Shown: piece after piece, positions 17,999 through 18,409 of the stretch
Numbering within the stretch: the stretch's first letter is position 1
Layout of the letters: each line of letters begins with the position of its first letter
DNA from: Candidatus Saccharimonadota bacterium
Lineage (GTDB): Bacteria > Patescibacteriota > Saccharimonadia > Saccharimonadales > UBA4665
DNA length: 32,000 nucleotides
NCBI GenBank assembly: GCA_016700375.1
Contig: CP065016.1
Location: forward strand, 1,224,495 to 1,256,494
Direction of reading: 5' to 3'
Position numbers and translations under genes: made by a program
The notes under the pieces: generated by a model
Told to the model about the DNA's origin: nothing
The model's input: the letters and a program-made list of their open reading frames with translations, nothing else
Database searches by the model: none

Positions 17999-18409
17999 CG
18001 TGATAGATTTTAGCCAGCCTCCCAGCATGCGTCCAATCTCGTTGCAGGTTGAGTCAAGCTGCTGGTAGGTCTGGTTAGAAACGCATTTACAGTCTTTGCA
18101 CAGATTGAGGAGCAGGCGGAGGCTATCGAGCCGTACGGATGCTTCTTTGATATAAGCGGCCTTATCGGATGGTTTAGTGCTACCAGCAGCTCGCAGTGAC
18201 AGTCGCAGGAGCTCAAGTATTTCGCTCTGACACGTCGCGCCGAGACCGTAGCGCTCTGATTTTGGAAATGCAATTAAACAATCATGAAAGGATTCATATA
18301 GGTGATAGACGCTGTTGACAATGGGAACTTTCCGCAGCGCGGAACCTCTCTCTCTCTCTCTCTCTCTCTCTCTCTCTCTCTCTCTCTCTCTCTCGATAGC
18401 CACGCTCAA
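17987..18409 (-). CDS. avd: Avd-like accessory variability determinant (four-helix-bundle family)
   Basis: FPKSERYGLGATCQSEILELLRLSLRA and EIGRMLGGWLKS match the Avd / 23S rRNA-intervening-sequence protein pattern. The start is uncertain: the only canonical in-frame starts are TTG 18409 and GTG 18403, beyond the (CT)n tract. Confidence 0.8.
   Translation of the reverse strand: MSVAIERERERERERERERERGSALRKVPIVNSVYHLYESFHDCLIAFPKSERYGLGATCQSEILELLRLSLRAAGSTKPSDKAAYIKEASVRLDSLRLLLNLCKDCKCVSNQTYQQLDSTCNEIGRMLGGWLKSITSSP

Follow-up and report, generated by a model that had tools for sequence, protein, structure and literature searches.

A hypervariable CT repeat within the overlapping avd and reverse transcriptase reading frames of a Patescibacteria DGR: a candidate three-state switch

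Can a single simple sequence repeat, placed where two divergent genes of a DGR overlap, make the expression of both genes switchable? The question is raised by the window analysed here (the whole stretch of DNA, 32 kb in length, with a G+C content of 45.7%), in which positions 18346-18394 read exactly (CT)24C, a run of 49 bp. TRF scored this tract as 24.5 copies with a 100% match, and a regular-expression scan for mono- to hexanucleotide runs above modest thresholds found it to be the sole microsatellite in the window. A contingency locus requires an unbroken repeat that is long enough to slip often; (CT)24C, being 100% pure, is such a repeat. An earlier note on this DNA had reported the perfect tract, which both the letters and TRF bear out, and had proposed that it acts as an on/off contingency switch.

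The DGR and its divergent reading frames

The element in the window is a real DGR. Its template repeat (TR; about 17882-17998, plus strand), the 3′-end of which overlaps the avd stop region, and its variable repeat (VR; about 17387-17503, plus strand) are 117 bp long, and 12 of the 13 mismatches between them fall at TR adenines. The VR forms the C-terminus of a target gene of 241 codons (16780-17505, plus strand), the product of which has no Pfam or NCBIfam match. The RT product matches RVT_1 (2e-20) and carries the DGR-type motif GIPLGNISSQLFAN. The adjacent avd product matches Pfam bAvd over residues 31-135 (1.6e-16) and NCBIfam DivGenRetAVD over residues 29-134 (6.7e-20; 71 bits, which is under the curated cut-off of 80). 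The genes are arranged as target-TR-avd(reverse)-RT, and the CT tract lies about 900 bp from the VR. No known RNA family was found when positions 17300-18900 were searched against Rfam. TRF also reports a weak 12-bp periodicity inside the TR, at 17937-17973 (GAATGACAACTG, about three copies, 72% match), which is an AAC-rich codon pattern recurring in the template.

The neighbours of the DGR (13947-16565 and 19985-20833) resemble genes for conjugation and type IV secretion, among them those for an 872-aa TrwB/TraG-like ATPase and an FtsK/SpoIIIE-like protein, and the DGR could for this reason be part of a mobile element. In the syntenic relative L049 the surroundings of the DGR also encode serine recombinases, a VirB4-like ATPase and a protein with a CHAP domain. 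An exact-protein look-up of the FtsK-like neighbour and of protein P0195 returned no match.

The long ORF of avd (17987-18409, minus strand) specifies 140 residues and begins at TTG 18409 or GTG 18403, while that of the RT gene (18302-19441, plus strand) specifies 379 residues from GTG 18302. The two are placed head to head and share 108 bp (18302-18409) in a codon-aligned antisense register. The tract lies inside this overlap and is read through by both ORFs, as (SL)8 in the RT frame and as (ER)8 in the avd frame, where it appears as (GA)n on the sense strand. For both long ORFs it thus separates the start codon from the body of the gene. The conserved body of RT begins near 18425 (VIITDIVSIKAL), and the canonical Avd domain begins at about residue 28, immediately after (ER)8.

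Shine-Dalgarno-like sequences precede the starts on the far side of the tract. AAAGGA (18287-18292, plus strand) lies 9 nt 5′ of GTG 18302 and is at the same time the antisense of avd codons for a conserved S-F-H; GAGAGGG (18415-18421, minus strand) lies 5 nt 5′ of TTG 18409 and 11 nt 5′ of GTG 18403. The clear genes of this genome use AAGGAG-type sites. On the proximal side, avd offers no ATG, GTG or TTG before codon 128, the only candidates being a CTG at codon 25 (18335-18337, minus strand), which has GAGAGG 7 nt upstream, created by the end of the repeat itself, and an ATT at codon 30. For RT the only canonical proximal start codon is TTG 18458, and the other candidates, ATA 18428 and ATT 18431, are non-canonical. 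The earlier note had described the divergent ORFs with their 108-bp overlap and their (ER)8 and (SL)8 segments, the two Shine-Dalgarno-like sites, the want of a canonical avd start until near the C-terminus, and TTG 18458 as the sole proximal RT start; all of this is upheld by the ORF coordinates and the letters.

A further RT start is available in a second frame. The ATG at 18322-18324 (plus strand; MGTFRSAEP...) keeps the RT ORF open if the tract is one CT unit shorter, and it is the start used by the relatives L002, L055 and L135 and by proteins P0001 and P0197. Inspection of the sequence upstream of this ATG revealed no clear Shine-Dalgarno site.

In the window (18302-18409) and in homologous junctions (for example L058, L061 and L098), avd and RT lie head to head, overlapping or abutting, in the codon-aligned antisense layout. 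A His or Gln codon of either gene, read on the opposite strand, here supplies the start codon of its partner (CAT/ATG, CAC/GTG, CAA/TTG), and in L050 both ATGs share a single CATG palindrome. In the window the CAC at 18401-18403 encodes His in the RT frame and reads GTG on the minus strand, and it is homologous to a family-wide CAT, which is the avd ATG.

Public annotations of these genes disagree with one another, as in CP060232.1 (L135) and in P0225, P0195, P0196 and P0200. Some records begin Avd at CTG (116 aa) and others at far-side codons (128-158 aa); RT is given far-side starts in either of two frames, or is cut short at an internal TTG (P0195) or GTG. Gene callers thus produce long ORFs, CTG starts and truncated internal starts at one and the same junction.

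Tract length and reading frame among close relatives

The closest relatives of the window belong to the Saccharimonadales (CPR/Patescibacteria): the avd product shares 96% identity with its homologue in Candidatus Microsaccharimonas sossegonensis, and synteny extends to the neighbouring genes. Seven loci, the window included, share the exact flanks of the tract (ggaac...gatagcc), and among these the tract has seven different lengths. It measures 49 bp in the window (length mod 3 = 1); 29 bp in L055/L049, 47 bp in L002 and 77 bp in L135, the closed genome CP060232.1 (mod 3 = 2); and 33 bp in L001, 39 bp in L136 and 45 bp in L003 (mod 3 = 0). The range of 29-77 bp therefore covers all three phases, and close genomes carry both in-frame and out-of-frame alleles, as at a contingency locus. 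The comparison of tract length and frame in relatives that the earlier note had recommended thus finds the tract to be hypervariable.

The change can be seen in near-identical contigs. In four such pairs the tract is the only indel: L011 and L013 have no mismatch in 6164 nt and differ by one G; L002 and L003 differ by one CT unit in 3746 nt of alignment; L005 and L006 also differ by one CT unit; and L024 and L026 differ by one G in the tract, together with 15 mismatches clustered in 80 nt in a VR-like manner. L002 and L003 (99.8% identical) also show the replacement of GATAGC by GATCTC 3 nt after the tract (window equivalent 18398-18399); this dinucleotide change is the sole non-VR substitution near the junction, and it renders the flank more CT-like.

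When tracts of other lengths were simulated in the window, both genes were ON at 24.5 units and both OFF with one unit more, and with two units more, which is equivalent in phase to one unit fewer, RT was ON and avd OFF. RT is thus open in two of the three phases and avd in one. The same nesting holds among the 17 informative loci without a proximal start for both genes, where every phase that opens avd also opens RT because of the codon-aligned antisense layout. The earlier note had expected that the gain or loss of one CT unit would frameshift both genes at once. This holds for a gain, which closes both, and fails for a loss, which closes avd only and leaves RT open through ATG 18322.

Among the seven loci of the window lineage, one is in the window's both-open register, three are RT-only and three are both-OFF. 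L055 is out of the window's register by one unit, yet both of its ORFs are open, owing to a GTG that arose by a C-to-T substitution. The avd and RT protein clusters contain many (ER)n and (SL)n alleles as well as truncated calls, the latter because gene callers fall back to them in out-of-frame alleles. The OFF-phase relatives possess intact ORFs and adenine-diversified VRs, a finding that fits reversible switching and constitutive low-level expression equally well. Across the family, the RT ORF through the tract is ON in 31 of 44 loci against 25.3 expected (P=0.048, permutation over the three phases), which is marginal, and that of avd in 27 of 49 against 24 expected (P=0.22, same permutation); a permutation on a stricter subset of loci was likewise marginal, and since the loci are phylogenetically non-independent, these and all other P values given here are optimistic. 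The natural phases are near random.

On balance we lean towards the reading that the repeat is hypermutable, that it lies within the translated overlap, and that it would serve as a slipped-strand switch with three states: both genes ON, RT only, and both OFF. The tract would act as a hypermutable simple sequence repeat within the translated 5′-ends of avd and RT, where slippage during replication would alter it in 2-bp units and so shift each gene body relative to its far-side start. At the 24.5 units of the window, which would represent the ancestral register, Avd could be translated from TTG 18409 or GTG 18403 and RT from GTG 18302. One additional unit would close both ORFs, and one unit less would close avd and leave RT open from ATG 18322. 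Avd is required alongside RT for DGR cDNA synthesis, as is known from the Bordetella phage system, and for this reason an active DGR is expected in only one of the three phases. The target gene would then be mutagenized in a stochastic and reversible manner, with three heritable states. From the sequences compared we infer that translation begins on the far side of the tract, that the OFF phases would abolish activity, and that switching would be frequent within populations. Slippage of RNA polymerase or of the ribosome on (CU)n/(GA)n could soften the OFF states.

A conserved slot for slippery repeats

A scan of species-representative genomes gave more than 591 matches, nearly all from Patescibacteria. 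In a set of 94 distinct loci with a divergent avd, the avd-RT junction carries a run of G7-12 in 44, (CT)n in 10 and no repeat in 40, so that the slot is occupied in 54 of 94. When repeats are defined more strictly, the 135-nt slot is occupied in 61 of 113 loci, compared with 14 repeats in 573 kb of flanking sequence, an enrichment of about 160-fold; most of those 14 fall elsewhere within the DGR cassette. The slot is kept across RT identities down to about 45%. Two unrelated types of repeat occupy it, which suggests that "slipperiness" itself is the conserved property. The orientation is constant, with G or CT on the RT sense strand and C or GA on that of avd.

The poly-G runs of 7-12 (L010-L037, L059-L133) are situated about 5-60 nt upstream of the conserved RT N-terminus. 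In 12 loci of this G type the run follows an in-frame RT start at a distance of 2-7 nt. At least 26 G in a row form the beginning of contig L080. Avds of only 30-40% identity also start with (ER)n. L050 has a (GA)17 within the avd ORF only, and L051-54 have an interrupted (GA)n located 30 nt after the avd ATG, which is identical across four samples.

Repeats are also found at other places in these cassettes. In four other CPR DGR lineages (L096 at about 3039, L118 at about 3081, L134 at about 3028 and L132 at about 919) an uninterrupted, in-frame (GA)6-11 lies in the middle of the RT ORF, where it encodes (RE)n directly before the conserved motif G-I/L-P-I-G-N-L-T-S-Q-L-F-A-N. Here a slippery repeat has another location in DGR RTs, one that is coding only, and an effect on the coding frame is the only one possible. 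Peribacteria/Peregrinibacteria DGRs that have no junction repeat (L082 at about 2114, L087 at about 2103 and L094 at about 2100) carry a G9-11 run where avd ends, towards the TR, and a (GA)9-10 lies just beyond the end of RT or of avd in L122 (at about 3564) and L090 (at about 1051). In the distant Avd P0189 from Candidatus Berkelbacteria an (RE)3-type stretch, QFRERERESKL, is placed centrally and not N-terminally.

These distributions bear on the idea that the repeat is a functionless mutational hotspot, or a product of sequencing or assembly errors at the junction. The lengths of homopolymers and dinucleotide repeats are indeed error-prone in assemblies, L080 simply starts with its G run, and the phases look random. 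The tract nevertheless appears in many independent assemblies, among them a closed genome of 1.13 Mb and a contig with 168x coverage, and in the window it is bounded by unique sequence on both sides. A neutral perfect repeat would moreover be expected to decay, whereas the slot persists to about 45% RT identity at about 160 times the flanking density. We consider this explanation very improbable.

Is the junction coding?

Loci without a repeat serve here as the comparison. Every one of the 40 repeat-free relatives has an in-frame start for RT and 39 of them for both genes, compared with 37 of the 54 repeat-bearing loci that have one for both. An in-frame start is therefore missing for one or both genes in 17 of 54 repeat-bearing loci and in 1 of 40 repeat-free loci (Fisher P=0.0002). 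Within the near clade (RT identity of at least 50%), the gap between the avd and RT frames is a multiple of three in 11 of 13 repeat-free loci, the two exceptions belonging to a short-gap type. The gaps of the 11 measure 42, 48, 54, 57, 60, 60, 63, 66, 66, 81 and 93 nt, that is, nine different lengths, and their variation in multiples of three points to a junction that is coding throughout. In repeat-bearing near-clade loci the gap is a multiple of three in just 12 of 44 (P=0.0003 against the repeat-free loci). The near-clade loci with G runs have a gap mod 3 of 1 in 20 of 34, which is neither random nor the register of the repeat-free loci (0), a preference that counts against the switch reading. 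The window's gap mod 3 is 0, and on this comparison its phase is the putative ancestral register displayed by its repeat-free near relatives.

The far-side starts have counterparts in these relatives. Repeat-free RT homologues begin M-[IV]-x-T-x-D-N, with which the window's MIDAVDNGNF from GTG 18302 aligns; in repeat-free L058 the nearest RT start lies 93 nt upstream, within antisense avd, and the ORFs overlap as they do in the window. Many repeat-bearing junctions, when read by eye, have a conserved CAT (the avd ATG) on the RT side of the repeat, and Avd homologues annotated from this codon start M-x7-PPP... or M...(ER)n. In distant clades this CAT is outside the RT ORF, in the arrangement CAT-aaaa-ATG, which is why the CAT/CAC after the tract is taken to be conserved as the avd start. 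The far-side starts that the earlier note had chosen are accordingly homologous to those of repeat-free relatives and lie in the same overlap register.

Conservation of the His codon after the tract for the sake of RT was also considered, and was rejected on the grounds that the same CAT, the avd ATG, falls outside the RT ORF in distant clades. In the avd Tyr-Gln codons, where CAA provides a TTG for RT on the opposite strand, CAA outnumbers CAG by 11 to 3 against a background of 55%, which is suggestive in a set of phylogenetically non-independent loci. A codon-position analysis gave no signal either way for the 30 nt that separate the tract from the RT core, owing to the poor conservation of this segment.

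A different view of the junction is that the repeat is an untranslated 5′ leader or intergenic sequence, with Avd made from the proximal CTG 18337 or ATT, and RT from ATA 18428 or ATT 18431. Tract length would then tune expression rather than switch it, for example if (GA)nGG served avd as a Shine-Dalgarno-like or standby site. The Avd domain models, which start right after (ER)8, and the GAGAGG 7 nt upstream of the CTG agree with this, as does the NCBI annotation of the CP060232.1 avd (116 aa) from CTG. An in-frame avd TTG occurs just after the tract in L005-7, L009 and most G-type loci (K-L-P-G-Q-F-Q), and canonical RT starts are found 6-15 nt after the G run in the distant loci L023, L030, L037 and L060. 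The near-random natural phases can be counted on the same side. For RT, however, no Shine-Dalgarno site lies 5′ of ATA/ATT, and the CT clade and the adjacent G clade lack any canonical proximal start; for avd, the CTG is replaced by CTC in L008. A pyrimidine tract is moreover unusable as a ribosome-binding site for RT, and poly-C is unusable for avd. The strict mod-3 register of the repeat-free near relatives, with the RT start deep in antisense avd, would be needless if translation began proximally, and the in-frame (GA)n that other lineages carry midway along RT would be left unexplained. We regard a leader role as rather unlikely, though as a serious contender. The G run as a universal RT ribosome-binding site was rejected: it fits L023, L030, L037 and L060 and fails both where the start precedes the run and for the pyrimidine CT tract.

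The coding character of the junction likewise bears on a role at the level of DNA or transcription, in which the tract, by spacing or as non-B-DNA (H-DNA), would lie between divergent avd and RT promoters and its length would set the strength of both. The position of the tract between divergent genes would suit such a role, and the G and CT repeats are both homopurine-homopyrimidine. Runs of G8-12 are typical of promoter-located phase-variable tracts, and some loci with proximal starts for both genes still keep the run. Promoter-spacer switches of the hifA/hifB, porA and fim type have the repeat between the -35 and -10 elements. A scan of both strands from about 18200 to 18500 revealed no sigma-70-like promoter flanking the tract, although it employed the sigma-70 consensus only, from which the promoters of Patescibacteria may depart. 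Tracts of 29-77 bp are, in addition, too long for a 17-bp spacer. Finally, the repeat-free junction is fully coding and fixed in register, so that the promoters would have to lie within the partner genes, and both start codons would precede the repeat. Such a role appears improbable to us.

The slipped-strand switch within the coding overlap remains the reading that we prefer, in a form that departs from the on/off switch of the earlier note. In favour of that proposal, the tract is hypervariable and repeat-bearing loci often have no in-frame start; at variance with it, the states number three rather than two and the phases are near random.

Relation to known switches and significance

Translational contingency loci are known from Neisseria, Haemophilus, Campylobacter and Helicobacter, where poly-G or tetranucleotide repeats are located near the 5′-ends of ORFs. 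The DGR tract resembles them in being a perfect long repeat just after a start codon, in differing in length between near-identical genomes and in having mixed-frame alleles, and the 12 G-type relatives with an RT start 2-7 nt before the run reproduce the classic layout. It differs in that DGR enzymes, rather than surface or restriction-modification functions, would be controlled, in that a single repeat lies in two divergent ORFs at once, in its Patescibacteria hosts, and in that its switching is predicted from sequence. In Haemophilus influenzae the (TA)n between hifA and hifB works at the level of transcription, from within the -35/-10 spacers of two promoters that overlap. As there, one dinucleotide repeat between divergent genes would control both, but the DGR tract falls where the coding 5′-ends overlap, its length greatly exceeds that of a spacer, and no such promoter was detected beside it.

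The element shares with the DGR of Bordetella phage BPP-1 (avd-TR-brt) its Avd, a DGR-type RT, adenine-specific TR/VR differences and a VR at the C-terminus of the target. It is unlike BPP-1 in its target-TR-avd(reverse)-RT order, in the divergent avd and RT that overlap head to head, and in the simple repeat within the overlap. Changes in the copy number of a tandem repeat in mutL modulate mismatch repair. As in such mutator switches, a slippery repeat would here make mutability heritable yet reversible, a form of second-order selection; mutL-type switches affect the mutation rate of the whole genome, whereas the DGR repeat would gate the mutagenesis of a single 117-bp target.

The earlier note was aware of no DGR controlled in this manner, and the literature searched agrees: a full-text search, which extended to papers outside subscription-only access, returned no report joining DGRs with simple-repeat or slipped-strand switching. 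The DGR survey of Wu et al. does not mention homopolymers, and repeat-based control is not described in accounts of BPP-1 or in the searchable DGR surveys. What is new is the application of contingency-locus logic, close to the shared repeat of hifA/hifB, to a DGR in which the repeat is read on both strands; it is not a new category of switch.

A broader proposal, to which we give somewhat less than even credence, is that the DGR cassettes of Patescibacteria systematically carry slippery repeats, whether G7-12 or (CT)n where avd and RT overlap, (GA)n midway along RT, or G runs where avd ends, and that these would make targeted hypermutation phase-variable. The window would then be a three-state switch set by one dinucleotide tract that both strands read, and an example of second-order contingency in which a stochastic switch gates a diversity generator. 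To our knowledge the regulation of DGRs is largely unknown, and many DGRs appear silent; we also know of no description of phase variation in Patescibacteria. If the proposed switch is real, it would be unusual in that a single repeat is shared by the reading frames of two divergent genes, and it would be the first indication known to us of contingency-type phase variation in the ultra-small symbiotic bacteria of the CPR/Patescibacteria. A reversible, heritable switch of this kind would explain how a cell could vary a ligand-binding protein and afterwards fix a variant that proves useful.
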